A stretch of 64,000 nucleotides of DNA from Chrysomallon squamiferum (Eukaryota; Animalia; Mollusca): the NCBI GenBank assembly GCA_012295275.1, contig CM022665.1, forward strand, positions 45,694,001-45,758,000, written 5' to 3'. Under the pieces are notes generated by a model. That model did not search any database. It saw only the letters and a program-made list of their open reading frames with translations, and was not told the DNA's origin. Shown piece by piece: positions 300 to 38,903 of this stretch. The stretch's first letter is position 1. Each line of letters starts with the position of its first letter. The position numbers and the translations under genes were made by a program.

Positions 300-1236
<937 letters not shown>

Positions 1237-1828: not shown

Positions 1829-3288
1829 CCATATTATCCATACACCCATCGTTTTATCTCCATTTATTTACTTATTTATTTATTTATTTAATTATTTATT
1901 TACTTGTGTATTCAAGTCAGTATGCACATGACTTAATAAATCATCCTTGTACCAAATCACAGTGAGAACAATTTTACAACACAGTAGATGCTGTCAGTAT
2001 GCATTTAACACTTCAATATTTATAGATACATAATATAGGCAGTCTTTGATCAATAGCTTTTAATACCTGCCACAAACTTTCAGGTGAGACATTTAACAAT
2101 AAATTAAATCGTAAATTGGGTTAACGGTTTATGTTGATTGGTGATAAACATTTTCGTAGAGAATAATCTGGTAAACAAAAAAGATGTTAATGCGCTGGAT
2201 ATTTACAGGAATGTTGTTTTAATGTAAAATTTTAAAATAGGATTTCTTCCAGTGCGAGAGATCAGACGTTGATGAAGAAGCAGCGAAAGTGTGCAACACT
2301 TAAGGTGAGCTAGTGACGGTAGGAAATAAGTATACGATTTCTGCGTTTAGTTATCTCTATCGCTCTCATTACAGAGGATTTGATTTATTTATTTACTTAC
2401 TTACTTAATTACATAATTAACTAGTTAATTAATTAATCAAAGGTAGATAAAGAAACACAATGTATAGAATTTTTAGGACAGTAATTAGCAAATAATAAAA
2501 GTTTCTCCCCCACACTTGTTATCGAGAATTTTATTTATTTATTTGTTTATTTATATATATTTATTTATTTATTATGAAATTAAACATAAAAATAAAATAA
2601 ACATATTCAAATATTTTGTATGATTATTAGATCGGATATCCTCAGAATACATGTGAATAATCGATAATCATCTCAAACGTATCGCAATTACCGTATTTAC
2701 TCTTGTATAAATCACAGCTTTTTTTTATACTTGTGTGTTTGTGTGTTTCTATTCGTGTATGTGTGTGGATGTGTTTGTGGTTATAGATATATAGACAGTC
2801 AGAGAGATAGACAGACAGACAGACAGTATATTATTACTATTTGTATTGTATTTATTATTTGTTTTATCAATTAATTGTATTAAAAATTTAAAAAGGTTCT
2901 TTTTTTTCTTTTTTTAATCATTCTATTTATTACGGTATTTACAGCTCTTCTTGCATTAGTTATGTATCTATGAATGTTTCTATAGTCTGTCTATTAGGGA
3001 ATTATCAATTTGTATACAATATTAAATTCATAGATGTACTTTTTTTTTTTTTTATTCTTTAGGAACTGAAAATGTCAGGGGTAATTTTGTTCAGACCAGT
3101 ACAAAATCATTCATAAAAATCTGAAAGAGCATTTTGATAGCTTAAATAGTTCTAACTAATGTTTCTTAAAATCCAAAGTAAAACAGAGAGATAATAATAA
3201 TAATAATGAAGAAATAAATAAAGAAACAAAGAAAGAAACAAAGAAAACAAGAAACAAAGAATTAATATTAATAATAAAAAAATTATAA

Positions 3289-3327
<39 letters not shown>

Positions 3328-3488
3328 ATCAATAAATAAATAAATTAATTAATTAATAAATAAAAACCGAACAAAAAACACAACATTATATTCATACGCT
3401 AAATTATAAATTTAATTTCTTTTCGACGTTTTTTTTTTCTTCTTCTTGTTTTTTTCTTTTTTGTTTTGTTTTGTTTTGTTTCTCCTCA

Positions 3489-4737
3489 CTAAGGTTCCTC
3501 ACCCAAAACTGGCGAGGTGCATATTCTGCAGCCGGAATATATAAAACAGCATTTCATGTTGCCTGGGCATTGGTAGTCGAAGTAGCAACGTTTTCTACAT
3601 AGGAACTGATCCTCACGGAAGGTAGCTGGACAACTGCCAACCCTAACTATTGCTGTAAGACAAATAATAATAATAATAATAGTAATAATAATAATAATAA
3701 AAGTAATAATTATAATAATAGTAATAATAATAACAATAATAATAATAATAATAATAATAATGATGATGATGATGATGATAATAAAATAGTAATCATAATA
3801 ATAATGATGATGATGATAATAGTAATAGTAATAATAATAAATAATAATAATAATAATAATAATATAATAATGATAATAAAATAAAGTAATAATAATAATA
3901 ATGATAATAATAAAATGACAATAATAATAATAAAATAATAATAATAGTAATAATAATAATAAAAAATTATAATACTAATAATAATAGTAATAATAATAAA
4001 AATAACAATAATAACAATACTAATAATAATAATAACAATAATAATAATACAACAATCATAATACAACAATAACAACAACAACAACAACAACAACAATAAT
4101 AATAACAGTAATAATAATAATAACAAAAATAATAATAATAATAACGCAAACACTTACTACAGATCCATTTATTGTAAATTGAGAAACACAACACAAGAAT
4201 AATATGAATTCTTATATCACTTTTAGTACATATAAACAATACATATACACTGGGGCAAATATTACAATGGTACGGCACCTATCAGCACACAAATGAGTTT
4301 ATCACTGACTGTCCCACTAATATTACACGGGTCTACTTCGCTGGTTCCTAAGCTAACTGTGTAACAATTGAATGTACCAGAAAATGGTGTAGCTAACAAT
4401 AGGACTTGATATTTGAAGTGAAAAATTACAGTATAATCATTAAAAACAATTAGTTTCAAAAATTATTTGAAATTGTATCTCGATCTATTTCTCGTTATGT
4501 GTTTGAAATATTAAAACAATCATTGGAAAAAGTATTATGATTATAAAACTTTATTATTAGCAAAGGTTGATATTATCCAAAGGAACTAACACTATGTTGT
4601 AAGAATTAAATTGCTCACGGACACACGTGGGTTCGGGTAGGCAAGGCGGTATTACACAATATGGCTCTATCATTTTACACATGAAGTGAGTTGGGCATGG
4701 GTGAAACTGGAAAAATAATAACAACAACAGTAATAAC

Positions 4738-4777
<40 letters not shown>

Positions 4778-6044
4778 GTAATAATAATAATAAAAACAAC
4801 GACAACAACAACAACAATAATAATAACAACAATAGTAATAATAATAACAATAATAAAATAATAATAATAGCAATAATAATAATGATAATAAAAGTGATAA
4901 TAGTAGTAACGATAATAATAATAGTAATAATAAAAATTATAATAGTAATAATAAAAGTAACAATAATAGTAGTAATAATGATAGTAATAATAACAGTAAT
5001 AATTATAATAGTAAATATAATAATAATAATAAAAGTAATAATAAAAATAATAGTAATATAATAATAATAGTAATAATAATAATAAAAAAAAATAATAATA
5101 ATAATAATAATAATAATAATTTGTCAACCATTTCAAAATATCTTACAGACACATTCTACCTATATCTATTTGAAACACGCGCCTATGTAGACATCATCTT
5201 TATCTCTGTGTATATGTGTGAATGCCTGTGTTTTCAGTTTATGTACACACATAAACACAAATAAATCTACGTCGTAAACATACATTTAAACAAACACGAT
5301 ATAAACTGAAATATATATTTTTTTATTATTATTTTTTTAAACTTACACCACACAGATACTCTCGTGCACCTAATTTTGCCTGCACTGTCAACATCAGAAG
5401 TGTACAGACAACCTGAAACGAAAATAACATCGCTTTTTAAACTTTCTGTTTGTCAGTAAGAAAAGCATGCAATACAAGTATTATAATTGTAGTTATTGAT
5501 TCTCAATGTTTTCTACACTTTTCAAGATAGAAACATTAATTTAAATGTGAGAAGATGCTTAGTATTGTTTTGAAATGCTTTTTCTTTTTTTTCTTCTATT
5601 TTCTTTTCTATTTTTTTTTTTTTTTTTTTTTTTATTATAATAATGATAAGTTTGTATACTAATTATATGATTATTTATTTAACACACACACACACACACA
5701 AACACATAATCTCTCTCTTTGTCTCTCTGTCTCTTTCTCTCTCTCGCTGTGTACCTAAGGCAAAAAGCCACAAACTAAAGCCATTATCACATTTGACAGT
5801 TTAACAATACCATCCCCAACACTTAATCAGGCTGTTGTGATTAAAATCATTATCAAATTTAAATATAAAATAATTCCATAGAGTACTCACGCACGCACAA
5901 ACATATACAAACACACGCATTCATGGTAAACACACACACAAAAAAGTCGTCATTATATATAACCGTTCAAAACTATATTAACAATTAAATAACAATGGTA
6001 CTTACAAAAATTGCCAGAAAGTCTACGCAACTGATCTTTGCCAT
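3489..6044 (-). CDS. Secreted 6-Cys module + WAP four-disulfide-core protein, copy B (118 aa)
   Basis: Exons 6044-6006, 5412-5347, 4706-4619, 3652-3489; all GT-AG, phases 0/0/1. Protein MAKISCVDFLAIFVVCTLLMLTVQAKLGAREYLCGFHPCPTHFMCKMIEPYCVIPPCLPEPTCVPIVRVGSCPATFREDQFLCRKRCYFDYQCPGNMKCCFIYSGCRICTSPVLGEEP*. The last exon has the 8-Cys WAP pattern (G-x-CP...C-x3-C-xxDxxC-P-xxx-K-CC...C..C). Confidence 0.92.
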
Positions 6045-6115
6045 GTTGGAAACGTCTACTGGGTAACCCGTGTATGCTGTTCAGTTTTTATAAAGTGTGA
6101 TGCCGAATACGTGAA
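6045..6115 (-). promoter_or_regulatory. TATA-box core promoter of the WAP genes (representative copy B; conserved in all 8)
   Basis: TATAAA 43-49 nt upstream of the ATG in every copy (1280, 6087, 10174, 14255, 18808, 23419, 28629, 34244). An Inr-like CCAGT lies about 30 nt downstream of TATA in A-G. A conserved GCCG(G/A)AT(A/G)CG lies just upstream of TATA, including in divergent copy H. Confidence 0.7.
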
Positions 6116-6314
6116 GGACAGTTGTTTTTGTATTCCAGATACAAAAGCAATTACTGACAAGCACAGACATCTCGTCAACAACAGCAACAACAACGACATT
6201 AAATAATGATAAATGTTCGATATGTATGTTTATACAAAAAGTGTGTGTGTTTGTATGTATGAGTGGATAGATATCTATATATGAATGATTATATGGACGT
6301 ATGTGTACGCACAT

Positions 6315-6408
<94 letters not shown>

Positions 6409-7079
6409 TGCCATGCATCCACCGTCATGTCTCTTTATTTATATATGTCAGTATGCACATGACTTAATAAATCATCCTTGTACCAAATCACGGTGAGAAC
6501 AATTTTTGTACACAGTGTTACTGTCAGTATACATCTATTTATTTATTTATAGATATATAATATAGGCAGTCTTTGATTAACAGGTTTTAATACCTGCCAA
6601 AAGCTTTCAGTTGATACCTTAAAACATAAATTAAATCGTAAATTGGGTTAACGGTTTTTGTTCAATAGTGATCAACTTTCGTACAGAATAGTCTGGTAAA
6701 CAGAAAAGATGTTAATGCGCTGGATATTTATAGTCTGTTGTTTCTTATGTAAAATTATAGAATAGGATTTCTTTCAGTGCCTGAGATCAGACGTAGATAA
6801 AGAAACAGGGTATATGTATACAACGAGAATTTTATTTATTTATATACTTACAGTACAGTTAGAGAGTGACAGTCATTAGGAACTAAATATAAGATTTCAG
6901 CGTTTTGTTTATTTATTATAGATTATGAAATTAGATATTTTATTTACAAACTTATTTAAATATTTTGTATGATTATTTAATTATCCTTATTTTTCGAATT
7001 CGATTTCATGTCAGTCGATTATATCCTGAATAATCGATTTATTATGCTGTTTTTTGCTTTCAATCAGAGAGACATAGAC

Positions 7080-7168
<89 letters not shown>

Positions 7169-7318
7169 AATAAATGGGGTGTAACTTTGACACAAGTAAA
7201 CCATCTGCTTTATATGCAAGAGAAAAGATTATAAATAGTTTTATAACATTCTGTGTAATTATTTATAAAGCATATATTATCTCCAGTTAGTTAATTATTT
7301 TGTCTATATATATATATA

Positions 7319-7363
<45 letters not shown>

Positions 7364-7837
7364 TATATTTATTATTATTTTTATTCGTTTTATCTTAAAG
7401 TATTATTGTTTTATCATTCTGTTTATTCACAGCTCTTCTTGCATTAGTTAACTGTCTATGACTTTTTCTGTAGTCTCTGTCAGTCACTGAATCATTAATT
7501 TGTATATAACACTATATTCATAACTGTACTTTTCTCTTTATCAGATCAGTATAAAATCAGTCATAACAAAATCCAAAACAGCATTTTAATAGTTTACATA
7601 GTTCTCACCAATGTTTCTTAAAATCCAAAGTAAAAAAATATATATATTAATAATAATAAAGAAATAAAGAAACAAACAAACAAACAAACAAAGAAATAAT
7701 ATTTATAATAAAAAAATAATAATAATAAATAAATAAATACCGAATAAAAAAAAGACAACATTATATTCATATGCTAAATCTTAAATTTAATTTCTTTTCG
7801 AATTTTTTTTTTTTTGTTGTTCTTTTTTTGTTTCTCC

Positions 7838-8048
7838 TCACCAAGGATCTGGATCCTGAATCGGGTAGGTGCATAATTTGCAGTTGGAATAGAAAAAGCA
7901 GCATTTATAGAAGAATGGGCATTCGTAGTCGAACGTGCAGTTTCCTCCACATCTGTACGTGAGAGGGGGTAAGGATGATGGACAATAGCCAAACTTAACT
8001 CTTCCTATAAGATAAATAATAATAATGATGATGATGATGATGATGATG

Positions 8049-8082
<34 letters not shown>

Positions 8083-8986
8083 AACAATAACAACAACAAC
8101 AACAACAACAATAATAATAATAATAAAGCAAACACTTATTTAAGATCTATTTATTGTAAATTTAGAAATATAGCACAAGAATAATATGAATTATTATAAC
8201 ACTTTTAGTACATATAAAGAATACATATACACTGGGGCGAATATTACAAGGGTACGGCACCTATCAGCACAAAAATGAGTTTATAACAGATCAACCGGTG
8301 ACTGTTCCACTAATATTACACGGGTCTACTTCGCTGGTTCCTAAGCTGTCTCTCAATGTGCCAAAAATCTCCTGTAGCTAACAATAGGACTTGATATTTC
8401 AAGTGAAGAATTACAGTATAATCAAGAAAACAATTCGCTTTAAAAATTATTTGAAATTATATCTCGACCTATTTATCATTATGTGTTTCAAATATTAAAA
8501 CAATCATTGGAAAAAGTATAATGATTATAAAACTTTATTATTAGCAAAGGTTGATACTATCCAAAAGAGCAAACACTATGTTGTAAGAATTAAATCACTC
8601 ACGCACACACGTGGGTACGGGTAGACAAGGCGGTATTACACAATATGGCTCTATCATTTTACACAAGTAGTGAGCTGGGCATGGGTGAAACTGGAAAAAT
8701 AATAATAACAATAATATTAATGGTAATAACAATAATAAAATAAAAATAATAATAGCAATAATAATAATGATAATAACAGTGATAGTAATACTGACAATAA
8801 CAATAACAAGAACAATAATAACAATAACGACAATACTAACAATAACAATAATAACAAGAATAATAATATAACAGTAACATCAATAATAATAACTAATAGT
8901 AACAATAATAATGAAACAATAATAATAATAGTAGTAATAATAATGATAACAACAATGATAAGTAATAGTAATAATAATAATAACAA

Positions 8987-9030
<44 letters not shown>

Positions 9031-9105
9031 GTAGTAATAATGATAATACTAATAACAGTAATAATTATAATAGTAATAATAATAAAAGTAATAATAATAA
9101 TAATA

Positions 9106-9143
<38 letters not shown>

Positions 9144-10131
9144 GTAATAATAGTAATAATAATAATATCAATAATAGTAATAATAATAATAACAATAAAA
9201 TAATAATAATAATAATGATAATTTGTCAAACATTTTAAAAATATTTTACAGACATATTCATCGTATAATTAAACATGCCTATATCTATTTCACACACGCG
9301 CCTATGTAGACATCATCTTTAACTCTATGTATATGTGTGAATGCCTGTGTTTTCTGTTTATGTACACACATAAACGCAAATAAATCTACGTCGTAATCAT
9401 ACATTTAAACAAACACGATATAAACTCAAATATATATTTTTTAAACTTACACGACACAGATGTTTTGATTCATTTGATTTTGCCTGCACTGTCAACATCA
9501 GAAGTGTACAGACAACCTGAAACGAAAATAACATCGCTTTTTAAACTTTCTGTTTGTCAGTATGAAAAGCATGCAATACAAGTATTATAATTGTAGTTAT
9601 TGATTCTCAATGTTTTCTACACTTTTCAAGATAGAAACATTAATTTAAATGTGAGAAGATGTTTAGTATTGTTTCGAAATGATTTTTTTCTTCTATTTTT
9701 TTATTTTTTGCATTATAAAATAATATTATAATAATGATAAGTTTGTATACTAATTATATGATTATTTATTTAACACACACACACACACACACATAATCTC
9801 TCTCTTTGTCTCTCTGTCTCTTTCTCTCTCTCGCTGTGTACCTAAGGCAAAAAGCCACAAACTAAAGCCATTATCACATCTGACAGTTCAACAATACCAT
9901 CCCCAACACTTAATCAGACTGTTGTGATTAAAATCATTATCAAATTTAAATATAAAATAATTCCATAGAGTACTCACGTACGCACAAACATATACAAACA
10001 AACACATGTATGGTAAATCCACACACACAAAAGTCGTCATTATATATAACCGTTCAAACCTATATTAACAATTAAATAACAATGGTACTTACAAAAACCG
10101 CCAGAAACTTTACACAATTGATCTTTGCCAT
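7838..10131 (-). CDS. Secreted 6-Cys module + WAP protein, copy C (119 aa)
   Basis: Exons 10131-10093, 9516-9451, 8690-8603, 8004-7838. MAKINCVKFLAVFVVCTLLMLTVQAKSNESKHLCRFHPCPAHYLCKMIEPYCVIPPCLPVPTCVRRVKFGYCPSSLPPLTYRCGGNCTFDYECPFFYKCCFFYSNCKLCTYPIQDPDPW*. Intact frame, canonical splice sites. Confidence 0.92.
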
Positions 10132-11739: not shown

Positions 11740-11950
11740 TCACCAAGGATCTGGATCCTGAATCGGGTAGGTGCATAATTTGCAGTTGGAATAGAAAAAG
11801 CAGCATTTATAGAAGAATGGGCATTCGTAGTCGAACGTGCAGTTTCCTCCACATCTGTACGTGAGAGGGGGTAAGGATGATGGACAATAGCCAAACTTAA
11901 CTCTTCCTATAAGATAAATAATAATAATGATGATGATGATGATGATGATG

Positions 11951-11984
<34 letters not shown>

Positions 11985-13141
11985 AACAATAACAACAACA
12001 ACAACAACAACAATAATAATAATAATAAAGCAAACACTTATTTAAGATCTATTTATTGTAAATTTAGAAATATAGCACAAGAATAATATGAATTATTATA
12101 ACACTTTTAGTACATATAAAGAATACATATACACTGGGGCGAATACTACAATGGTACGGCACCTATCAGCACACAAATGAGTTTATCACAGATCAACCGG
12201 TGACTGCTCCACTAATATTACACGGGTTTACTTCGCTGGTTCCTAAGCTGACTGGGTAACAACTGTATGTGCCAAAAACAATGGTGTAGCTGACAAAAGG
12301 ACTTGATATTTCAAGTGAAGAATTACAGTATGTATCAAGAAAACAATTCGTTTTAAAAATTATTTGAAACTGTATCTCGATCTATTTCTCGTTATGTGTT
12401 TGAAATATTAGAACAATCATTGGAAAAAGTATTATGATTATAAAACTTTATTGTTAGCAAAGGTTGATTCTATCCAAAAGAGCAAACACTATGTTGTAAG
12501 AATTAAATCACTCACGCACACACGTGGGTACGGGTAGACAAGGCGGTATTACACAATATGGCTCTATCATTTTACACAAGTAGTGAGCTGGGCATGGGTG
12601 AAACTGGAAAAATAATAATAACAATAATAATAATGGTAACAACAATAATAAAATTAAAATAATAATAGCAATAATAATAATGATAATAACAGTGATAGTA
12701 ATACTGACAATAACAATAATAACAATAACAACAATAATATTAACAAGAACAATAATAACAATAACAGCAATAATAATAACAATAATAAAATAACAGTAAC
12801 ATCAATAATAATAACTAATAGTAACAATAATAATAATAGTAGTAATAATAACAATAACAACAATAATATTAACAAGACCAATAATATCAATAACAACAAT
12901 AATAATAACAATAATAATATAACAGTAACATCAATAATAATAACTAATAGTAACAATAATAATGAAACAATAATAATAATAGTAGTAATAATAATGATAA
13001 CAACAGTGATAGTAATACTAACAATAACAATAATAGTAATAATAAAAATAATAATAGTAGTAATAACAATAATAGTAATAATAATAGTAGTAATAATGAT
13101 AATACTAATAACAGTAATAATTATAATAGTAATAATAATAA

Positions 13142-13178
<37 letters not shown>

Positions 13179-14212
13179 TAATAATAATAGTAATAATAGT
13201 AATAATAATAATATCAATAATAGTAATAATAATAATAACAATAAAATAATAATAATAATAATTGTAATTTGTCAAACATTTTAAAAATATTTTACAGACA
13301 TATTCATCGTATAATTAAACATGCCTATGTCTATTTGACTCACGCGCCTATGTAGACATCATCTCTATCTCTGTGTATATATGTGAATGCCTGTGTTTTC
13401 TGTTTATGTACACACATAAACGCAAATAAATCTACGTCGTAATCATACATTTAAACAAACACGATATAAACTCAAATATATATTTTTTTTTATTATTTTT
13501 TTAAACTTACACCACACAGATACTCTCGTGCACCTAATTTTGCCTGCACTGTCAACATCAGAAGTGTACAGACAACCTGAAACGAAAATAACATCGCTTT
13601 TTAAACTTTCTGTTTGTCAGTAAGAAAAGCATGCAATACAAGTATAATTGTAGTTATTGATTCTCAATGTTTTCTACACTTTTCAAGATAGGAACATTAA
13701 TTTAAATGTGAGAAGATGCTTAGTATTGTTTTGAAATGCTTTTTCTTTTTTTTTCTTCTATTTTCTTTTCTATTTTTTTTTTTTGCAATATAAAATAATA
13801 TTATAATAATGATAAGTTTGTATACTAATTATATGATTATTTATTTAACACACACACACACACACACACACACATAATCTCTCTCTTTGTCTCTCTGTCT
13901 CTTTCTCTCTCTCGCTGTGTACCTAAGGCAAAAAGCCACAAACTAAAGCCATTATCACATTTGACAGTTCAACAATACCATCCCCAACGCTTAATCAGGC
14001 TGTTGTGATTAAAATCATTATCAAAGTTAAATATAAAATAATTCCATAGAGTACTCACGTACGCACAAACATATACAAACAAACACATGTATGGTAAATC
14101 CACACACACAAAAGTCGTCATTATATATAACCGTTCAAACCTATATTAACAATTAAATAACAATGGTACTTACAAAAACCGCCAGAAACTTTACACAATT
14201 GATCTTTGCCAT
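11740..14212 (-). CDS. Secreted 6-Cys module + WAP protein, copy D (119 aa)
   Basis: Exons 14212-14174, 13576-13511, 12603-12516, 11906-11740. Exons 1, 3 and 4 match copy C; exon 2 matches copy B (LGAREYLCG). Intact frame. Confidence 0.9.
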
Positions 14213-16281: not shown

Positions 16282-16497
16282 TCACCAAGGATCTGGATCC
16301 TGAATCGGGTAGGTGCATAATTTGCAGTTGGAATAGAAAAAGCAGCATTTATAGAAGAATGGGCATTCGTAGTCGAACGTGCAGTTTCCTCCACATCTGT
16401 ACGTGTGAGAGGGGGTAAGGATGATGGACAATAGCCAAACTTAACTCTTCCTATAAGATAAATAATAATAATGATGATGATGATGATGATGATGATG

Positions 16498-16543
<46 letters not shown>

Positions 16544-18390
16544 CAACAACAACAACAAACAACAACAACAATAATAATAATAATAAAGCAAACACTTATT
16601 TAAGATCTATTTATTGTAAATTTAGAAATATAGCACAAGAATAATATGAATTCTTATATCCCTTTTGGTACATATAAACAATACATATACACTGGGGCAA
16701 ATACTACAATGGTACGGCACCTATCAGCACACAAATGAGTTTATCACAGATCAACCGCTGACTGCTCCACTAATATTACACGGGTCTACTTCACTGGTTC
16801 CTAAGCTGACTGGGTAACAACTGTATGTGCCAAAAACAATGGTGTAGCTGACAAAAGGACTTGATATTTCAAGTGAAAAATTACAGTATGTATCAAGAAA
16901 ACAATTCGTTTTAAAAATTATTTGAAACTGTATCTCGATCTATTTCTCGTTATGTGTTTGAAATATTAGAACAATCATTGGAAAAAGTATTATGATTATA
17001 AAACTTTATTGTTAGCAAAGGTTGATACTATCCAAAAGAGCAAACACTATGTTGTAAGAATTAAATCACTCACGAACACACGTGGGTTCGGGGTAGGCAA
17101 GGCGGTATTACACAATATGGCTCTATCATTTTTTACACAAGTAGTGAGCTGGGCATGGGTGAAACTGGAAAAATAATAATAACAATAATAATAATGGTAA
17201 CAACAATAATAAAATTAAAATAATAATAGCAATAATAATAATGATAATAACAGTGATAGTAATACTGACAATAACAATAATAACAATAACAACAATAATA
17301 TTAACAAGAACAATAATAACAATAACAATAACAGCAATAATAATAACAATAATAAAATAACAGTAACATCAATAATAATAACTAATAGTAACAATAATAA
17401 TAATAGTAGTAATAATAACAATAACAAAAATAATATTAACAAGACCAATAATATCAATAACAACAATAATAATAACAATAATAATATAACAGTAACATCA
17501 ATAATAATAACTAATAGTAACAATAATAATAAAACAATAATAATAATAGTAGTAATAATAATGATAACAACAGTGATAGTAATACTAACAATAACAATAA
17601 TAGTAATAATAAAAATAATAATAGTAGTAATAACAATAATAGTAATAATAATAGTAGTAATAATGATAATACTAATAACAGTAATAATTATAATAGTAAT
17701 AATAATAAAAGTAATAATAATAATATAATAATAATAGTAATATAATAATAATAGTAATAATAGTAATAATAATTATAGCAATAATAGTAATAATAATAAT
17801 AACAATAAAATAATAATAATAATAATGATAATTTGTCAAACATTTTAAAAATATTTTACAGACATATTCATCGTATAATTAAACATGCCTATGTCTATTT
17901 GACTCACGCGCCTATGTAGACATCATCTTTAACTCTATGTATATGTGTGAATGCCTGTGTTTTCTGTTTATGTACACACATAAACGCAAATAAATCTACG
18001 TCGTAATCATACATTTAAACAAACACGATATAAACTCAAATATATATTTTTTAAACTTACACGACAAAGATGTTTTGATTCATTTGATTTTGCCTGCACT
18101 GTCAACATCAGAAGTGTACAGACAACCTGAAACGAAAATAACTTTTTAAACTTTCTGTTTGTCAGTAAGAAAAGCATGCAATACAAGTATAATTGTAGTT
18201 ATTGATTCTCAATGTTTTCTACACTTTTCAAGATAGAAACATTAATTTAAATGTGAGAAGATGCTTAGTATTGTTTTGAAATGCTTTTTCTTTTTTTTCT
18301 TCTATTTTCTTTTCTATTTTTTTTTTTTTGCAATATAAAATAATATTATAATAATGATAAGTTTGTATACTAATTATATGATTATTTATT

Positions 18391-18427
<37 letters not shown>

Positions 18428-18765
18428 TAATCTCTCTCTTTGTCTCTCTGTCTCTTTCTCTCTCTCGCTGTGTACCTAAGGCAAAAAGCCACAAACTAAA
18501 GCCATTATCACATCTGACAGTTTAACAATACCATCCCCAACACTTAATCAGGCTGTTGTGATTAAAATCGTTATCAAATTTAAATACAAAATAATTCCAT
18601 ACAGTACTCACGCACGCACAAACATATACAAACAAACACATGTATGGTAAATCCACACACACAAAAGTCGTCATTATATATAACCGTTCAAACCTATATT
18701 AACAATTAAATAACAATGGTACTTACAAAAATTGGCAGAAACTCAACACAACTGATCTTTGCCAT
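16282..18765 (-). pseudogene. WAP array copy E, frameshifted (pseudogene or consensus indel errors)
   Basis: Exons 18765-18727, 18126-18061, 17164-17074 (91 nt vs 88), 16450-16282 (169 nt vs 167). +2 in a T-run (about 17129-17134) gives TGT AAA AAA TGA. There is also +1 in a G-run (about 17090-17093) and +2 (GT) at about 16403-16406 in the WAP exon. Confidence 0.7.
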
Positions 18766-20901: not shown

Positions 20902-21115
20902 TCACCAAGGATCTGGATCCTGAATCGGGTAGGTGCATAATTTGCAGTTGGAATAGAAAAAGCAGCATTTATAGAAGAATGGGCATTCGTAGTCGAACGT
21001 GCAGTTTCCTCCACATCTGTACGTGAGAGGGGGTAAGGATGATGGACAATAGCCAAACTTAACTCTTCCTATAAGATAAATAATAATAATGATGATGATG
21101 ATGATGATGATGATG

Positions 21116-21149
<34 letters not shown>

Positions 21150-22320
21150 AACAATAACAACAACAACAACAACAACAATAATAATAATAATAAAGCAAAC
21201 ACTTATTTAAGATCTATTTATTGTAAATTTAGAAATATAGCACAAGAATAATATGAATTCTTATATCCCTTTTGGTACATATAAACAATACATATACACT
21301 GGGGCAAATACTACAATGGTACGGCACCTATCAGCACACAAATGAGTTTATCACAGATCAACCGCTGACTGCTCCACTAATATTACACGGGTCTACTTCA
21401 CTGGTTCCTAAGCTGACTGGGTAACAACTGTATGTGCCAAAAACAATGGTGTAGCTGACAAAAGGACTTGATATTTCAAGTGAAAAATTACAGTATGTAT
21501 CAAGAAAACAATTCGTTTTAAAAATTATTTGAAACTGTATCTCGATCTATTTCTCGTTATGTGTTTGAAATATTAAAACAATCATTGGAAAAAGTATTAT
21601 GATTATAAAACTTTATTGTTAGCAAAGGTTGATACTATCCAAAAGAGCAAACACTATGTTGTAAGAATTAAATCACTCACGAACACACGTGGGTACGGGT
21701 AGGCAAGGCGGTATTACACAATATCGCTCTATCATTTTACACAAGTAGTGAGCTGGGCATGGGTGAAACTGGAAAAATAATAATAACAATAATAATAATG
21801 GTAACAACAATAATAAAATTAAAATAATAATAGCAATAATAATAATGATAATAACAGTGATAGTAATACTGACAATAACAATAATAACAATAACAACAAT
21901 AATATTAACAAGAACAATAATAACAATAACAGCAATAATAATAACAATAATAAAATAACAGTAACATCAATAATAATAACTAATAGTAACAATAATAATA
22001 ATAGTAGTAATAATAACAATAACAAAAATAATATTAACAAGACCAATAATATCAATAACAACAATAATAATAACAATAATAATATAACAGTAACATCAAT
22101 AATAATAACTAATAGTAACAATAATAATAAAACAATAATAATAATAGTAGTAATAATAATGATAACAACAGTGATAGTAATACTAACAATAACAATAATA
22201 GTAATAATAAAAATAATAATAGTAGTAATAACAATAATAGTAATAATAATAGTAGTAATAATGATAATACTAATAACAGTAATAATTATAATAGTAATAA
22301 TAATAAAAGTAATAATAATA

Positions 22321-22358
<38 letters not shown>

Positions 22359-23002
22359 GTAATAATAATTATAGCAATAATAGTAATAATAATAATAACA
22401 ATAAAATAATAATAATAATAATGATAATTTGTCAAACATTTTAAAAATATTTTACAGACATATTCATCGTATAATTAAACATGCCTATGTCTATTTGACT
22501 CACGCGCCTATGTAGACATCATCTTTAACTCTGTGTATATGTGTGAATGCCTGTGTTTTCTGTTTATGTACACACATAAACGCAAATAAATCTACGTCGT
22601 AATCATACATTTAAACAAACACGATATAAACTCAAATATATATTTTTTAAACTTACACGACACAGATGTTTTGATTCATTTGATTTTGCCTGCACTGTCA
22701 ACATCAGAAGTGTACAGACAACCTGAAACGAAAATAACATCACTTTTTAAACTTTCTGTTTGTCAGTAAGAAAAGCATGCAATACAAGTATTATAATTGT
22801 AGTTATTGATTCTCAATGTTTTCTACACTTTTCAAGATAGAAACATTAATTTAAATGTGAGAAGATGCTTAGTATTGTTTTGAAATGCTTTTTCTTTTTT
22901 TTCTTCTATTTTCTTTTCTATTTTTTTTTTTTTTTTGCAGTATAAAATAATATTATAATAATGATAAGTTTGTATACTAATTATATGATTATTTATTTAA
23001 CA

Positions 23003-23040
<38 letters not shown>

Positions 23041-23376
23041 ATATCTCTCTTTGTCTCTCTGTCTCTTTCTCTCTCTCGCTGTGTACCTAAGGCAAAAAGC
23101 CACAAACTAAAGCCATTATCACATTTGACAGTTTAACAATACCATCCCCAACACTTAATCAGGCTGTTGTGATTAAAATCATTATCAAATTTAAATATAA
23201 AATAATTCCATAGAGTACTCACGCACGCACAAACATATACAAACAAACACATCATGGTAAAACACACACAAAAAAAAGTCGTCATTATATATAACCGTTC
23301 AAACCTATATTAACAATTAAATAACAATGGTACTTACAAAAATTGCCAGAAACTCAACACAACTGATCTTTGCCAT
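20902..23376 (-). CDS. Secreted 6-Cys module + WAP protein, copy F (119 aa)
   Basis: Exons 23376-23338 (MAKISCVEFLAIF), 22722-22657 (SNESKHLCR type), 21768-21681 (IERYC variant), 21068-20902 (WAP as in C/D). Intact frame. Confidence 0.9.
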
Positions 23377-25670: not shown

Positions 25671-25866
25671 CTAAAAACCGTAGCCCGACCTCGGCGGCGT
25701 GCATATTCTGCCACAGTAATCTACTACGCAGCATTTCCAGTCACCTGGACATTCGTAGTCGTAGTAGCAACGTTGTCGACATCTGGACTGGACCCTAGGG
25801 AAGTTGAATGGACAACGGCCGGGCTTAACTATCGCTGTAAAACAAATAATAACAATCACAATAATC

Positions 25867-25903
<37 letters not shown>

Positions 25904-26430
25904 TGATAATGATGATAATAATAATTATAATAATAATAACAATAATAATCATAATGATAATAATAATTAGAACAATAATTGCAATATTTTATTTTTTTAA
26001 TTCTGTGTATTGAAGAAATACATTGGTTGGAACAGACTGTTCAAAAAAAGCTAGCACAGGCATATGCAAAATTTAAATATCAATTAATATATAACGTATA
26101 TTTCAAATTTTTCTTTACGTATGTTGGTTTGAGTGTATGCATGTATTTTATGATTTTTAATATTTTCTGTGTTATATACTACGTCTGATTAGTCAATATT
26201 CGGGAACGCACTGGAGTACAAAGTCCAATCACGAATTCACAAACACCGAAAGCAAACAACATTACCAAGACAACACAGTGTATGTATGTATGTATGTATG
26301 TACGTATTTACATATTATATATCTATATTTAATAACATGACATAAAATGAATGTCTATATTTCATTATCCTGTTTTCTGCATAAATCAAACGATCAACTT
26401 TATGCTGTAAGAAAAAAAATATATATATAC

Positions 26431-26471
<41 letters not shown>

Positions 26472-26627
26472 CCTCGGGCATAAATCATAAATTTAAGACA
26501 GCCATTTTGCATAATCGTATTAAATACGGAAGACTAAATAATTACTGATTCATAAAATAAAAAAAATAATTTTTTTTAACAATCCATCATTTAAAGGGCA
26601 CATTTGAACGTTAGAGCAAACTAACTT

Positions 26628-26687
<60 letters not shown>

Positions 26688-27010
26688 TATTATTATTATT
26701 ATTATTGTTGTTGTTGTTGTTGTTGTTGTTGATGATGATGATGTGGCTGTCATCGTTTTTATCGTCGTCACCATCATCGTCTTCATTATCATTATCATCA
26801 TCATCATCATTATTATTATTATTATTATTATTATTGTCATTACTATTATTATAAAACTTTATTATTAGCCAGGTTTGGTGACTAGTAATTAAGAATTAAA
26901 GTACTCACGGACGCACGTGGGGTAGGGTGGGCACGGAGTTGTGAAACAGTTTGGCTGTATCACTTTACATATGTAACCTGGCCTGCATCTGTGAAACTGG
27001 AATAATAATG

Positions 27011-27050
<40 letters not shown>

Positions 27051-27289
27051 TGATGATGATGATGATGATAATAATAATAATGATAATAATAATAATAATA
27101 ATGATGATGATGATGATGATGATGATAATAATAATAATAATGATGATGATAATAATAATAATAATGATGATGATGATGATGATAATAATAATAATAATGA
27201 TAATGATAATAATAATAATGATGATGATGATGATGATGATAATAATAATAATGATAATAATAATAATAATAATGATGATGATGATGATG

Positions 27290-27321
<32 letters not shown>

Positions 27322-27581
27322 AATAATAAGAAGAAGAAGAAGAAGAGGAAGAAGAAAAAGTAGAAGAAGAAAAAGAAGAAGAAGAAAAGTAATTAATTAG
27401 TAAATTTGTTTATTTATTCTCTTTAAGTTTATCAATGTCAGATTAATAATAAATTTTTCACAGTTTATGAAATATTTTACAGATATATTCATCTTATAAT
27501 TAAACATATCTATATTGTACTTATTTCACATGCACGCATATACAAACATCATCTCTCTATCTCTGTACGTATGTGTGTGTC

Positions 27582-27629
<48 letters not shown>

Positions 27630-28224
27630 CACATGCACATATACATGTATGCACACACACACACACAGACAAACACATAAATTCAAACATAAATATACAA
27701 ACACACATTTACAGATATAAATATTCTCTCTGTATGCACACCCATATACGCAAATAAATCTATGTCGTAAACATACATATAAAGAAGCACGATATAAACT
27801 GCTATCTTTTAAATTTATTTTTATTCTTTTTGACTTACACGACACAAATACTCTGGTGCACCTAATTTTGCCTGCACTGTCAACATCAGAACTGTACAGA
27901 CAACCTGAAACGAAAATAACATCACTTTTTAAACTTTCTGTTTGTCAGTAAGAAAAGCATGCAGTGCAAATATTTATTATTGTTATTAATTCTGAATGTC
28001 TTCTATACGATTCAAGATTATAACCATTAATTTAAATGTGTGGAGATGTTTAATATTGTTTTGAAATGCTTTTTCGGTTTTTTCTTCTGTTTTTTTTTTT
28101 TATGTTTTTATTTTTTTTTGCGTTATAAAATAATATTAAAATAATAATAAATTTATATACTAATTCTATGATTAACTATTTAACATTCACACACATACAC
28201 ACACAATCGTTCGATTCATGATGC

Positions 28225-28290
<66 letters not shown>

Positions 28291-28586
28291 TGTGTGTGTC
28301 TGTGTCCCTAAGACAAAAACACGTACAAAAAGCTACAAAGTAAAGCCATTATCACATTTATCAGTTTAACGACACCATCTCCAACAATTAATCAAATTTA
28401 AAAACAAAAGGAACTCTATACAATACACACACAGGCACAAACATATACAAACATAATCAAACATAATGCATTTGTAAACTCTAACAAAATAAAAGTCATC
28501 GCTAAATATCTATCCTGTATTAACAATTAAATAACAGTGATACTTACAAAAATCGCTGCATACTCTACACAACTGATCTTTGCCAT
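25671..28586 (-). CDS. Secreted 6-Cys module + WAP protein, copy G (118 aa, Arg-rich WAP)
   Basis: Exons 28586-28548, 27904-27839, 26996-26909, 25834-25671. MAKISCVEYAAIFVVCTVLMLTVQAKLGAPEYLCRFHRCRPGYICKVIQPNCFTTPCPPYPTCVPIVKPGRCPFNFPRVQSRCRQRCYYDYECPGDWKCCVVDYCGRICTPPRSGYGF*. Canonical WAP start KPGxCP. Confidence 0.93.
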
Positions 28587-30416: not shown

Positions 30417-31187
30417 TGTTTTTGTGTATATGTAGATAAATAAACACCAGTAATAGGACAGTAATTAGGAAATAATTATACGATTTCTCTTAGCATTTAG
30501 TTTGTACAGCACTCTTGTTAACGAGAATTTTATTTATTTATTTATTTACTAATTTTTTTTATTAATAATTTTTTTAGTTATTTATTTTTTTTATTATAAC
30601 TTCTCATAAAATAAAATAAATATATTTAAATATTTTCTTCTTAATATTAATATTATTATTAGATAGGTCATCCTGTATCTTTTCAGTTTATGTATTTTTG
30701 TTGTGAAGCATCGAATAATCGATGATCATCCCAGATTATCGTAATAACCGTATTTACTCATGTATAAGTTACATCTTTTTCGTGTATTCTCTCGGGTGCG
30801 CGTGCGCGTGTGTGTGTATTCATAAATGTACTTTTCTTTTTGTGTGTAAGGAACTGAAGATTTGAGGTGTACTTTTGTTCAGATCAGTATAAAATCATTC
30901 ATAATAAAATCTAAACGAGTATTTTTCATAGTTTACCTAGTTCTCGACTAATGTTTCTTAAAAAGCCAAACAAAAAACCCCAGATAAGTAAATACGTAAA
31001 TAAATAAATAAATAAATAGACAGACAGACAGACAGACAGATAAATAAACATATATATATATATATATACCGAACAAAAAACACATTATATTCATATGCTG
31101 AATTTTAGATTTAATTTCTCTTCACCAGGTTTTTAAATTTTTTTGATTTTTTAAAAACATTTTCTGTTCGACTCTGTTTCTCGTCAC

Positions 31188-31434
31188 TTAGAAAGTGAAA
31201 CCCCAAGTCGGGTTGGTGCACCTTTTGCCCCAGAAACCTGTATAGCAGCATTTCTGGTTGCCTGGACACTGGTAGTCGTGATAGCAGTGTTGACCATATC
31301 CATTGTAATAGATCCAGGGATAGGGGTATGGACATCGCCCTGGTTTATATATTGCTGCAAGACAAATTAAAATAATGATGATGATAATGATGATGATGAT
31401 AATAATAATAATGATAATAATAATGATGATGATG

Positions 31435-31469
<35 letters not shown>

Positions 31470-31578
31470 AATAATGATAATGATGATGATGATGATGATA
31501 ATAATAATAAAAATGATGATGATGATAATAATAATAATGATAATAATAATGATAATAATGATAATAATAATAATAATG

Positions 31579-31611
<33 letters not shown>

Positions 31612-32140
31612 TTAAAATTAATCATTTAAAAACATATTTTAAAATTAGTCAGATCAAATGAATCTAACGGAAACGGTAATAAAATATAAAATCCTCTGGA
31701 ATATTTGTTTTGCCAATTTCACCCCCCAGAATTTTAAAGTTTTGTTTTGTTTGATGTGCTGTTTGTTTCCCGTTCTAACCCAGGGGTGCGCAATCTGCGA
31801 CCGTGGGAAGAATGTCACCTCGTCACGTTTAACGTCTCATTTGAACTATAACGAGGCTAAGCGTCAGTACAAACACTCGTACAACATGAATTAACTGTGA
31901 CAGTCAGATGACGTCACACAACGAGGTGTCTCAGTATTCATTTATAGATCCGACTGTTTTAAAAGATGTTATGTAATAAAAAGTAGTAAATAATATTAAT
32001 AACTGCTTTATTTTGACTTTAATGAGAAGTCAGTTCTCATGGAAACATGTAAACATGCTCATATTTTATTATCTTGTTTCCTGCATGAATCAAACGATCG
32101 GATTTACGCTCTAAGAAAACATGTATATATATATATACGT

Positions 32141-32192
<52 letters not shown>

Positions 32193-33243
32193 CCCTGGGG
32201 CAAAAATCGGATCGGGCAGAACTCTATAATTACAGTAATAAAATGTTGTACTTTGCATTCTATATCACTAAATAATAAACTGACACATAAAAATAAAAAA
32301 TAAAGTTAATGATCTGCATCATTTAAAGTGCATCACTGTTTTACAGAAATACCGCCTGTAGACGTTGTAGATTATTATTTTATATATCCATACAAGATTT
32401 TACTATAGATGTTATAGATTATTATAGTGTCGTCGTCATCGTCGTTATCATCATCATCATCAATATCATCAACATCATCACCATCATCATTATTATTATT
32501 ATTATGACTCATGTTATTGTTATTGTTTGTTGTTGTTGTTGTTATTATTATCATTATTATTAACATTATTATTATTGTAAAACTTTGTTATTAGCAAAAT
32601 TTGGTGGCTTGAAAAATGAAACAACCACAGGATGTAAAATTAAATTACTCACGGACGCACGTGGGGACGGGCGGACAAGGCGGTACAAAACAATATGGCT
32701 GAATCATCTTGCACACGTTGCCAGGCGGGCATGGGTGAAACTGAATAAAAAAAAAAAAAAAAAAAAAAAAGATTTGAAGTTGCTATTAATTAAATTGTTT
32801 ATTCATTATTTTTATTTTATTTGTTTTGCACTGATCATCTGCAGTTTATTTTTACCGTGTTAAGATATCAACTTTATCATGCTATGTTCCTGCTACGGAG
32901 TTAGCAGCTCGGCTAAGCCTCGCTGGAAATGGGCATTGTTACCTTCGCTAAGCAAAACAGATATCTTAAGTAATTAACAAGTTAATCTATCTATCAATCT
33001 ATCTATCTGCATCTATATATATGTAGAAATATATATTGATAGATAGATAGACAGACAGAGATAGACAGATAAATAGAGCGACAGACAGACAGACAGACAG
33101 ACAGAGATAGATAGATAGATAGATACATATACACACACACATACACACACGCACACAAACATACATAAATACACAGATAAATGTATGTCGTAAATATAGC
33201 TAACTATATATGCACATAAACATACCATATGTAAAAAAATATA

Positions 33244-33278
<35 letters not shown>

Positions 33279-33996
33279 TTAACTTACGAGACAGGAAAAT
33301 TCTGCCTGCACTGACACCAACAAAAATGCACCAATGACCTGAAATGAAAATAACATCATTTAATAAAATTTATCTTATCTTTAACAGCGACATAGAAATA
33401 CCTTTATAATTAGAAATTCTGAATGTTTTCTGCAACATTTATTTATTTTACGGTAATTTGTTTATCGTATTAATATGTTTATTTTTGCTCAGATGTTGTT
33501 GTTCTTTTGTTGTTGTTGGTTTCAAAGACCAGTGTAAAATGGATAGTATTAATATTCATTTAAATGTGGGAAGATGATATTTTTTTCAGGATTATTGCAA
33601 AAAATAACCCACAATAACACTAACTACACCTGCATTATTTAACACATACTTAAACTCTCTTTCTTTCTCTCTCTCTCGCTCACTCTCTCATTCTCTCTTT
33701 CTCAAACTCCATCTCTCTCTCTCTCTGACGCTCTCTCTTTCTCTCTCTCTCTCTCTCTCTTCCTCTTTTTTCTTTCTGTTTCTCAGTCTTTCTCAATAAA
33801 CTCTCTTTCTTTCTCTCTCTCAAACTCCATCTCTCTCTGTCTCTCTCTTTTTTCTCTCATTCTCTTCCTCTCATTTTTCTTTCTCGACAGCTGAAACCCG
33901 TGCAACAGTTCAACATTCAAAGACACACACGCGCATGCACACAAACACTCTCTCGCATAATCTAAACACAAAACAGTACCATACAACACACAAACA

Positions 33997-34035
<39 letters not shown>

Positions 34036-34195
34036 TACGAAATCACGCATAAAACAATGACCCCACACACACACACACAGATTAAAGTCACTGATAAAGA
34101 CTACTACTAGATATTTATTCCAAGCTTTAAATAAAACAAAAAAAAATGAAACTTACAAAAATCAGCACAAACTCAGAAGATCTCATCTTTGCCAT
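31188..34195 (-). CDS. Secreted 6-Cys module + variant (6-Cys) WAP protein, copy H (114 aa, Tyr-rich)
   Basis: Exons 34195-34157, 33338-33288, 32740-32653, 31354-31188. MAKMRSSEFVLIFVIGAFLLVSVQAEFSCLFHPCPPGNVCKMIQPYCFVPPCPPVPTCVPIYKPGRCPYPYPWIYYNGYGQHCYHDYQCPGNQKCCYTGFWGKRCTNPTWGFTF*. Contains KPGxCP and CPGNQKCC motifs. Confidence 0.92.
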
Positions 34196-37934: not shown

Positions 37935-38903
37935 TTAAGTATCGTCACTGTCGACATCTGAATCGTTATTGTCGTCACCACTGACGTCACTGTCGCCATG
38001 GCTACTGTTTGAATCTTTAACATCATCATCATCATCACTGTGACTGCTGCTTTTACTACTGCTGTTGTCGCTGTCGTTTTCTGTGCTGGAGCGTCCTGCA
38101 GACCTAGCCTTGTCACTGATACTCCGAGTATCAACGACATCATCATCACTGTCGTCATCATTATCTTCTTCGTCCACGGAAGCAGTTTTGGAAAGTTCAT
38201 CATCCTTATTGGAATCTAAATTGTCATCATCACTACCATCATTATCTGAATGAGATTCCTTATCATCATCAGCAACATCATCTAGGTTTTCTTCAGCATC
38301 AGATTCAATATTGTCATCTTCCTTATCATCATCATCATCATCATCATCATCATTATTTGAATCGGAGTGATCATTTTTAACGTCGCTGTTGTCTGATTCA
38401 GAAATATTGGCCTCCTTTTCGTCAGCACTGTTTTCTACGTCAGAATCTGCACTGTTTTCTTGGTCAACAACAGTATCAGAGTCATCACTGATTTCCTTGT
38501 CACCGTCATCATCGTCTTCGTCATTGTTCTCTGATTCCGTCTCCTCCTTGTCAATATCAGAGTCCAAATCCTCATCGTTGTTTTTTGTATCAGAGTTTCT
38601 AGAATCTTCTGAAACGCCGTCAGAGTTCTCGACTTCTCTTTCGCTCTCATCCGTGTTAGAATCATCACCTCTGTCCTCGTCGGCTTCTTCGTCAGAATTG
38701 TCTTTGTTCTCGGAATCGGAATACTGTTGGTCCTCTCCCCGGACTTCATCGTTATCAGAATCGTCATCGTCGTTAGTACGAGAATCAGAGAAGTCCTCGT
38801 TACTCGCGTCAGAATCAGAAACCTCACTGACCTCAGAACCAGTCGCTGTAACTGGATTCGCCGCCGTCTTCTTCTTCTTCTTCTTCCTCGTCACTGACTT
38901 CAC
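37935..38903 (-). CDS. Asp/Ser/Glu-rich acidic (DSPP-like low-complexity) segment, probable C-terminus of the upstream ORF
   Basis: 322 open codons with varied codon use, so not a pure SSR. It begins with GTG overlapping the upstream TGA and continues the Lys-rich tract (RKKKKKK) of the upstream frame. Confidence 0.75.
   Translation of the reverse strand: MKSVTRKKKKKKTAANPVTATGSEVSEVSDSDASNEDFSDSRTNDDDDSDNDEVRGEDQQYSDSENKDNSDEEADEDRGDDSNTDESEREVENSDGVSEDSRNSDTKNNDEDLDSDIDKEETESENNDEDDDDGDKEISDDSDTVVDQENSADSDVENSADEKEANISESDNSDVKNDHSDSNNDDDDDDDDDKEDDNIESDAEENLDDVADDDKESHSDNDGSDDDNLDSNKDDELSKTASVDEEDNDDDSDDDVVDTRSISDKARSAGRSSTENDSDNSSSKSSSHSDDDDDVKDSNSSHGDSDVSGDDNNDSDVDSDDT

Follow-up and report, generated by a model that had tools for sequence, protein, structure and literature searches.

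How can one exon of a tandemly duplicated gene differ between neighboring copies at more than a third of its bases when the DNA on either side differs at about a tenth? The question is raised by a 64,000-nucleotide stretch of the mollusc Chrysomallon squamiferum (assembly GCA_012295275.1, contig CM022665.1, positions 45,694,001 to 45,758,000; hereafter the window), which carries on its minus strand, between positions 300 and 34195, eight related genes that we call A to H (Table 1). Gene A is truncated by the window edge, and no further copy was found elsewhere in the window. The tandem array comprises at least eight genes, each of four exons, whose predicted product is a secreted protein combining a six-cysteine module with one whey acidic protein (WAP) domain. 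In every complete copy, GT..AG introns separate the four coding exons and a TATAAA motif lies 43 to 49 nucleotides (nt) upstream of the ATG, and the predicted products are ~115 to 119 residues long. A hydrophobic stretch encoded by exons 1 and 2 terminates at an Ala-X-Ala-like site and is, judging by its composition, a predicted signal peptide; the six-cysteine module is encoded by the end of exon 2 together with exon 3, and the WAP domain is encoded by exon 4. We think it fairly probable that B and C arose as sister duplicates, that diversifying selection made their WAP loops diverge, and that unequal crossing-over and gene conversion later multiplied the C variant into four copies.

The contrast between exon 4 and its surroundings is sharp. 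Exon 4 of B and C differs at 57 of 159 bases (35.8%) and at 31 of 53 residues, and the differences fall at codon positions 1, 2, and 3 in the proportion 22/21/14. In the unique part of intron 3, 47 of 474 positions differ (9.9%), as do 6 of 88 in exon 3 (6.8%, with 25 of 29 residues shared) and, in the proximal 3' DNA, i.e., the first ~290 nt past the stop codon, 9/86 plus 11/91, or 20 of 177 (11%). Exon 4 is thus more divergent than intron 3 (P = 9e-13, Fisher test) and than the proximal 3' DNA (P = 1e-7), so that a coding exon diverged by 36% stands between noncoding flanks diverged by 10 to 11%. An earlier note on this DNA had proposed such a comparison after describing exon 4 as sharing about 22 of 54 residues. 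The exact figure is 22 of 53 aligned residues, since at position 54 B has a stop codon where C has Trp, and exactly 2 of the 22 shared codons differ synonymously, as the note had counted. The span that it gave, 3489 to 8004, was also exact, running from exon 4 of B (3489-3652) to exon 4 of C (7841-8004), both next to GT..AG introns. Its description of the shared residues as mostly the cysteine framework was overstated, as 8 of them are Cys and 14 are not.

Changes between B and C occur in every loop. They affect 9 of the 10 residues between Cys1 and Cys2 and are densest between Cys1 and Cys3 (12 of 13 residues); the variable Cys1-Cys2 stretch aligns with the loop of elafin and SLPI that carries Ala-Met or Leu-Met. 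Reading frame, length, and all 8 Cys are retained in both copies despite the 57 changes. With G as the outgroup, C has 29 unique bases and B has 13 (P = 0.014), so the C exon has changed more than the B exon; it lies 36 to 44% from B, G, and H. The last two carry two further distinct WAP variants, as the earlier note had reported, which makes four variants among seven copies: C, D, and F are identical, and E has a 2-nt insertion. Exon 4 of B was recovered whole on contigs of two of four sequencing runs, both from one study, with 2 differences in each; its absence from the other two runs may be an effect of the filter. These runs have other bases at positions 3596 and 3615. Position 3596 occurs in three states (Arg, Arg, and Gly), and the Gly state, which is copy C's codon, possibly reflects conversion from C or a recurrent change.

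Selection on the WAP exon was assessed with codon models implemented in our own Python code rather than in PAML, using B, C, G, and H over 53 codons; one H codon was dropped, with two placements tried, and D and F (equal to C) and the frameshifted E were omitted. Nei-Gojobori (NG86) values did not serve as the main estimate, since averaging over the possible paths in multiply hit codons inflates synonymous divergence (dS). The site-model comparison of M7 with M8, which the earlier note had recommended, gave P = 0.047 with F3x4 and 0.034 with F1x4 codon frequencies (the F3x4 M8 fit may be a local optimum), M8a versus M8 gave P = 0.032 and 0.024, and M1a versus M2a gave P = 0.014 (F3x4) and 0.071 (F1x4). 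Codons 13, 32, 46, and 51 had posterior values of >0.9 in both site-model fits. In branch-partitioned models with an invariant class of ~25% of codons, the ratio of replacement divergence (dN) to dS (omega) was 4.5 to 5.6 on the B and C branches and ~1 elsewhere; omega above 1 on these two branches is statistically supported (P = 0.002 to 0.009 against omega = 1, with double-nucleotide changes allowed), and dS between the two exons was 0.19 to 0.25. Leaving out the Cys columns, codons 9 to 17, or the tail gave omega values of 4.9 to 11.9 (P ≤ 0.013; dS, 0.12 to 0.22). The observed ratio of 9.45 was reached by 0 of 169 null simulations and by 2 of 169 when double-nucleotide changes were included, all simulated without intra-exon recombination. 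Exon 3, used as a control, gave no selection signal (omega = 1.1, P = 0.9, dS = 0.10). After adjustment for composition, the differences at codon positions 1 and 2 (43/106) exceeded all 14 noncoding yardsticks tried (P = 1e-32 to 0.022), whereas those at position 3 (14/53) exceeded only the 4 most homogeneous ones. Given that omega is ~5 on the B and C branches while exon 3 lacks a signal, diversifying selection on the WAP exon is likely, albeit from thin data (four variants, 53 codons).

B and C exon 4 are probably sister duplicates. Both immediate flanks of the exon are ~11% apart (47/474 and 20/177), informative sites join B with C at 8 of 10 positions in exon 3 and 5 of 6 in the proximal untranslated region (UTR), and a tree of intron 3 plus exon 3 places B with C to F (support, 100/99). 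Synonymous differences at shared codons are fewer between B and C (2/22) than between B and G (7/26) or G and H (10/25) (binomial P = 0.041 and 0.002, respectively, for the B-C count against these rates). Without Cys codons, the corresponding counts are 1/14, 5/19, and 10/19.

Among C to F, the pattern is reversed, with the WAP exon being the least variable part. These copies differ mutually by 2 to 7% in mosaic fashion, and by up to 7% in intron 3, whereas the longest invariant tract comprises 248 columns centered on exon 4, against a permutation maximum of 192 (P = 1e-4). Since the WAP exon is the least variable part of these copies, the faster-changing C variant has likely been amplified or converted recently across four copies, as represented in one assembly in which E is frameshifted.

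Recombination is also evident in the spacers. The five units between successive WAP exons from B to F are mosaics: their 69 informative sites support 8 different splits, 1,345 of 2,346 site pairs are incompatible, and like splits are clustered (37 adjacent matches versus a permutation maximum of 23; P ≤ 1e-4). Exon 2 joins B with D, while exon 1 joins C with D. Divergence between B and C is 1 to 4% in intron 1 and the promoter and 8 to 13% in introns 2 and 3. On the 3' side, the flank of C is closer to B up to ~290 nt (11/91 to B versus 14/91 to G) but G-like beyond this point (6/121 to G versus 29/121 to B; P = 0.002). The switch lies near position 7541 and is marked by a 40-nt block of B and H, and a tree of the far 3' flank groups G with C to F (support, 93/93). 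The earlier note had described intron 3, exon 3, and a 3' UTR block as highly similar between B and C. This holds for intron 3 (9.9%), exon 3 (6.8%), and the proximal 3' DNA (~11%), but the UTR block is present in all seven copies that could be compared, the old paralogs G and H included, and therefore reflects constraint rather than recent ancestry.

If diversifying selection and amplification are both at work, the array could have arisen as follows. Duplication of a B-like gene would have separated B and C at the start of the ~11% flank divergence, or up to about twice as long ago. At three quarters of the codons, replacement changes would then have accumulated roughly five times as fast as synonymous ones, with more of them on the C branch, while the Cys scaffold and a core of Asp-Tyr, Lys, and Pro were held during the change of the loops. 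Recombination would keep the 5' exons, intron 1, and the promoter alike (1 to 4%) and fade towards the divergent WAP exons at the array edges, and the amplification of the C variant by unequal crossing-over and gene conversion would have come last. As knowledge of the WAP family suggests, the product may be secreted and inhibit proteases or act as an antimicrobial, with its target specificity residing in the loops.

A more elaborate version, which we offer only tentatively, is that the WAP exon serves as a swappable specificity cassette fenced by microsatellites. The 5' exons would shuffle freely (there are two exon 2 types and several exon 1 types), selection and heterology would shield WAP variants from conversion, and the newest selected variant would have been swept into four copies. 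If so, a single haplotype would show how an undescribed gastropod family diversifies, how its variants escape conversion, and how dosage is raised by amplification, and homogenization of the flanks would answer the puzzle of accelerated dS in the mammalian trappins.

Several observations weigh against the reading that selection drove B and C apart. As a whole-exon average, NG86 gives a dN of 0.49 and a dS of 0.47, and the one-ratio maximum-likelihood omega is 1.13 to 1.33 (P = 0.54 to 0.81); one of the six site tests (P = 0.071) is not significant. When the B-C pair is analyzed alone, omega is 3 to 7 with P = 0.012 to 0.064, and the dS profile is nearly flat from ~0.1 to 0.7. The three allelic changes in B exon 4 are two synonymous and one replacement, with no sign of allelic hypervariability, and a polymorphism-versus-divergence test based on these three changes alone gave P = 0.12. 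Within exon 4 itself, 7 sites join B with C and 6 join C with H (support, 86/88), so intra-exon recombination or homoplasy could inflate omega. Since the spacer units are recombinant mosaics, intron 3 is not a clean clock, and recombination between copies in the intron inflates the exon/intron contrast. In the old pairs, moreover, synonymous divergence is 2.5 to 4 times the alignable noncoding divergence: the proportion of synonymous differences in exon 3 is 0.46 between B and G and 0.65 between G and H, versus 0.17 to 0.18 in alignable noncoding DNA. Noncoding yardsticks therefore run low, and exon-versus-intron contrasts are inflated across the array generally. The earlier note had regarded a dN/dS of 1 or less, with dS matching intron divergence, as evidence against selection. 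The whole-exon ratio is indeed ~1, but omega is 4.5 to 5.6 on the B and C branches, and dN exceeds dS in the models with an invariant class, although not as a whole-exon average. Its proposal of diversifying selection on the inter-cysteine loops thus has moderate support from the site and branch models and none from the whole-exon average. The arms race between host and microbe or enzyme and inhibitor that it had invoked would be a hypothetical cause.

A rival explanation is that the divergence peak is a relic of gene conversion: B and C would be much older than their flanks suggest, the WAP loops would have drifted under weak constraint with omega near 1, and conversion would have erased flank divergence while selection or low similarity spared the exon. 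The mosaic spacer units, the C-like far 3' flank of G, and the rise in B-C divergence from 1 to 4% in intron 1 and the promoter to 10 to 13% near exon 4 would all fit, as would the NG86 dS of 0.47, equal to dN, and the excess of third-position differences over the intron expectation (14/53 versus 6.3; P = 0.003); such a pattern has been described for opsins (PMC3924837). However, this explanation needs a dS of ~0.6 to 0.9, whereas only 2 of 22 shared codons differ, fewer than in B-G or G-H. It also requires both flanks to have ceased converting at about the same 11%, and the omega = 1 model is rejected (P = 0.002 to 0.013). We consider it unlikely.

Alternatively, exon 4 of B or C could have been imported by recombination from an older or unlinked paralog, as the earlier note had allowed for B. 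Recombination is frequent in the array, 6 exon 4 sites group C with H, and potential donors such as exon 4 of copy A and loci beyond the window lie outside the view. Within the window there is no donor, C exon 4 being 36 to 44% from B, G, and H. Because the proximal UTR and intron 3 on both sides join B with C, an imported tract would have to match the exon closely. The low synonymous difference at shared codons fits sister status, and the flanks at ~11% are compatible with an exon 4 dS of 0.12 to 0.25, which disfavors an old paralog segment and makes import improbable. Least probable is that local hypermutation, multinucleotide changes, or assembly artifacts produced both the exon divergence and the near-identical copies without selection. 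In its favor, many codons differ at 2 or 3 bases, the null model fits better with a double-hit rate, three small indels interrupt the exons of copy E, and the copy number of the C-type exon rests on one assembly. Against it, omega of ~5 persists when double hits are allowed, the 57 changes have left frame, length, and 8 Cys intact in B and C, two of four runs contain B exon 4 to within 2 bases, and the mosaic 2 to 7% differences among C to F are unlike a simple duplication of one read path.

The locus is a new example of a known pattern, seen in trappins, Hessian fly SSSGP genes, and conotoxins. The introns of conotoxin genes are conserved. Conotoxins, too, are gastropod products with a fixed scaffold, whose inter-cysteine loops are hypervariable and whose Cys codons are largely kept (PMC3823881), but they belong to another fold and gene family, and nothing in the array points to venom. 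In the trappins of pig, cow, and armadillo, the WAP exon is reported to be 3- to 16-fold more diverged than noncoding DNA, with an average dN/dS near 1 to 2 that is significant (3.3 to 5.2) only in some pairs; the variable region is thought to set specificity, and dS, too, is elevated in pig and armadillo, for which the authors give no explanation (PMC2831891). The main text of that study contains 0 occurrences of "gene conversion" (PMC2831891). Like the trappins, the array consists of tandem duplicates of a small WAP protein, here predicted to be secreted, with an accelerated WAP exon; unlike in the trappins, which are eutherian and defined by a transglutaminase-substrate domain (PMC2831891), the array genes pair the WAP domain with a six-Cys module that has a conserved exon of its own. 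The second WAP Cys is displaced by four residues to a later position, the aligned site lacks Met, and flank recombination is directly visible.

The Hessian fly SSSGP genes have diverged mature regions with conserved introns and UTRs, for which positive selection and concerted homogenization have been invoked (PMC2955719). They share with the array tandem genes for secreted proteins (secretion being predicted here) and coding divergence beside conserved introns and UTRs, but the proteins are unrelated, and the whole mature region diverges there, whereas here one domain exon diverges next to a conserved Cys-rich exon (PMC2955719). Red and green opsins likewise combine low intron divergence with a peak at a selected exon in tandem duplicates; in contrast to them, the peak in the array has an excess of replacement changes and one amplified variant (PMC3924837).

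Among gastropods, published accounts describe a Patella mucus protein with a WAP domain and a proposed defensive role (P-vulgata_12; PMC7333891), perlwapin-like WAP proteins in the shell matrix of Lottia and Haliotis (PMC3374290), and WAP proteins in gut or venom-related tissue (PMC4460706, PMC11359391). The Patella, Lottia, and Haliotis proteins are, like the predicted array products, secreted and Cys-rich, with a WAP domain and another disulfide module, but they have 219 to ~1,000 residues, mostly with antistasin-like domains, and the shell proteins have several WAP domains (PMC7333891, PMC3374290). The array products, with ~118 residues, one WAP domain, and a module without a Pfam match, are set apart from them by these descriptions rather than by sequence comparison. 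A literature search covering accessible papers without supplements, with most subscription papers outside its reach, found no description of the gene family, and in the same literature no paper combined whey acidic protein, gastropod, tandem, and positive selection. The array provides a case of WAP-exon acceleration in a probable gastropod, independent of the mammalian trappins, with no named relative of the same architecture found in the searches made. Being intact, it allows selection to be separated from recombination. It also indicates that exon-versus-intron contrasts overstate acceleration where flanks recombine, with a selection signal that survives correction here. Its four natural WAP variants, one of which lacks a Cys pair, form a panel for testing which loops set target specificity.

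The identity of the exon 4 domain is clear from profile matches. All four variants match PF00095 above the cutoff of 20.8 bits (B, 37.6; C, 29.0; G, 43.9; H, 42.7), and a structure model of C exon 4 had omwaprin, SLPI, and elafin as its top Foldseek rows (best E, 0.008; TM, 0.69). The WAP domain has 8 Cys in B, C, and G and 6 in H, which lacks the second and seventh; these form one disulfide in elafin, and their paired loss suggests a folded three-disulfide variant. Of the 53 residues of H exon 4, 15 are aromatic and one is acidic. The array gene is a WAP-domain gene that is neither a trappin nor a crustin. Crustins come from crustacean hosts and have a 12-Cys signature or a Gly- or Pro/Arg-rich region before the WAP domain. 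Types I to III were rejected, as the array genes have no CC pair before the WAP domain, no Gly- or Pro/Arg-rich tract, and a gastropod-like neighbor gene. A trappin/elafin assignment was rejected because exon 3 encodes a Cys module and there is no transglutaminase-substrate domain, and because the neighbor gene points to a gastropod rather than a eutherian host. Where elafin has Ala-Met, the aligned residues of B are Gln-Phe and those of C are Thr-Tyr, with Cys2 shifted and no Met. A word-based protein search returned 0 matches with B exon 4 and, with the four-exon alignment, 2 generic WAP proteins among 34 candidates, with no orthologs for the selection test.

A scan of exon 3 covering 29 residues with 5 of the 6 Cys found neither a Pfam family nor an antistasin match, and each gene has one WAP domain. 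A profile search with exon 3 gave 15 matches, which come from an oomycete, a protist, a cockroach, and metagenome records of myxobacteria-like origin, and none of the 10 that were scanned had a WAP domain. In the secreted proteins of these sources, the six-Cys module occurs as tandem repeats. One relative had a FOLN match of 17.8 bits, below the threshold of 21.1; a structure model of this relative, with a mean pLDDT of 69, matched nothing in Foldseek at E ≤ 0.001 and reached a VIA-align Z of 2.2 at best. The module had no PDB sequence match, and its Atlas matches were all below 0.9. By sequence similarity, it seems to be a widespread, unnamed module.

Table 1. Features of the WAP gene array, by position in the window
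Feature	Positions	Strand	Remarks
Exon 4 of copy B, encoding the WAP domain (8 Cys) and ending the reading frame with the stop codon	3489..3652	-	PF00095, 37.6 bits; 164 nt
Copy C exon 4, WAP domain (8 Cys), faster-changing variant	7841..8004	-	PF00095, 29.0 bits; 164 nt
(AAT)n microsatellite in intron 3 of B, immediately upstream of exon 4	3663..4144		112 nt in C
Unique part of intron 3 of B	4145..4618	-	Divergence 8-10% to C-F and 26-28% to G and H
Exon 3 of copy B, with five of six Cys of the unnamed cysteine-rich module	4619..4706	-	No Pfam family
Copy B exon 2, predicted signal peptide end and first module Cys	5347..5412	-	D identical; C, E, F 15% away
Copy B exon 1 (coding part)	6006..6044	-	TATAAA 43 nt before ATG
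Conserved 3' UTR block	3384..3404	-	In 7/7 copies
~40-nt block in 3' flanks of B and H	3052..3091		Not in C, F, G; limits approximate
Longest invariant tract among C-F, centered on exon 4	7781..8192		248 unmasked columns; permutation P = 1e-4
Copy C exons 3 (8603-8690), 2 (9451-9516), and 1 (10093-10131)	8603..10131	-	
Copy D	11743..14212	-	Exon 4 equals that of C, exon 2 that of B
Copy E	16285..18765	-	Frameshifts in exon 3 (+2, +1) and exon 4 (+2)
Copy F	20905..23376	-	Exon 4 identical to C
Copy G, older paralog	25671..28586	-	WAP exon 25671-25834, PF00095, 43.9 bits; far 3' flank C-like
Copy H, older paralog	31187..34195	-	WAP exon 31187-31354, 6 Cys, PF00095, 42.7 bits
Copy A exons 2 and 1	300..1236	-	Remainder beyond left window end

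Exon 2 is a second, smaller divergence peak. It occurs in two types that are 15% apart among otherwise near-identical copies (5347-5412, 9451-9516, 13511-13576, 27839-27904), one in B and D and G-like, the other in C, E, and F and A-like, and the residues just after the predicted signal cleavage site are altered between them. The frame of copy E is broken by three small insertions, spread over its exons 3 and 4 (16285-17164), whereas the unique intron sequence between these exons has none relative to F; this copy is either a pseudogene or an assembly error.

Beyond the array, an open reading frame of 691 codons on the minus strand (38903-40975) has no Pfam match. Its first ~360 residues have 13 relatives, of which the best unnamed one is 64% identical, and all 5 named ones are from gastropods (Lottia, Patella, Nucella, Littorina, and Elysia), so that a gastropod host is probable. 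A short imperfect direct repeat at 48579-49176, with a period of ~130 to 290 nt and 79% identity, is unrelated to the array.

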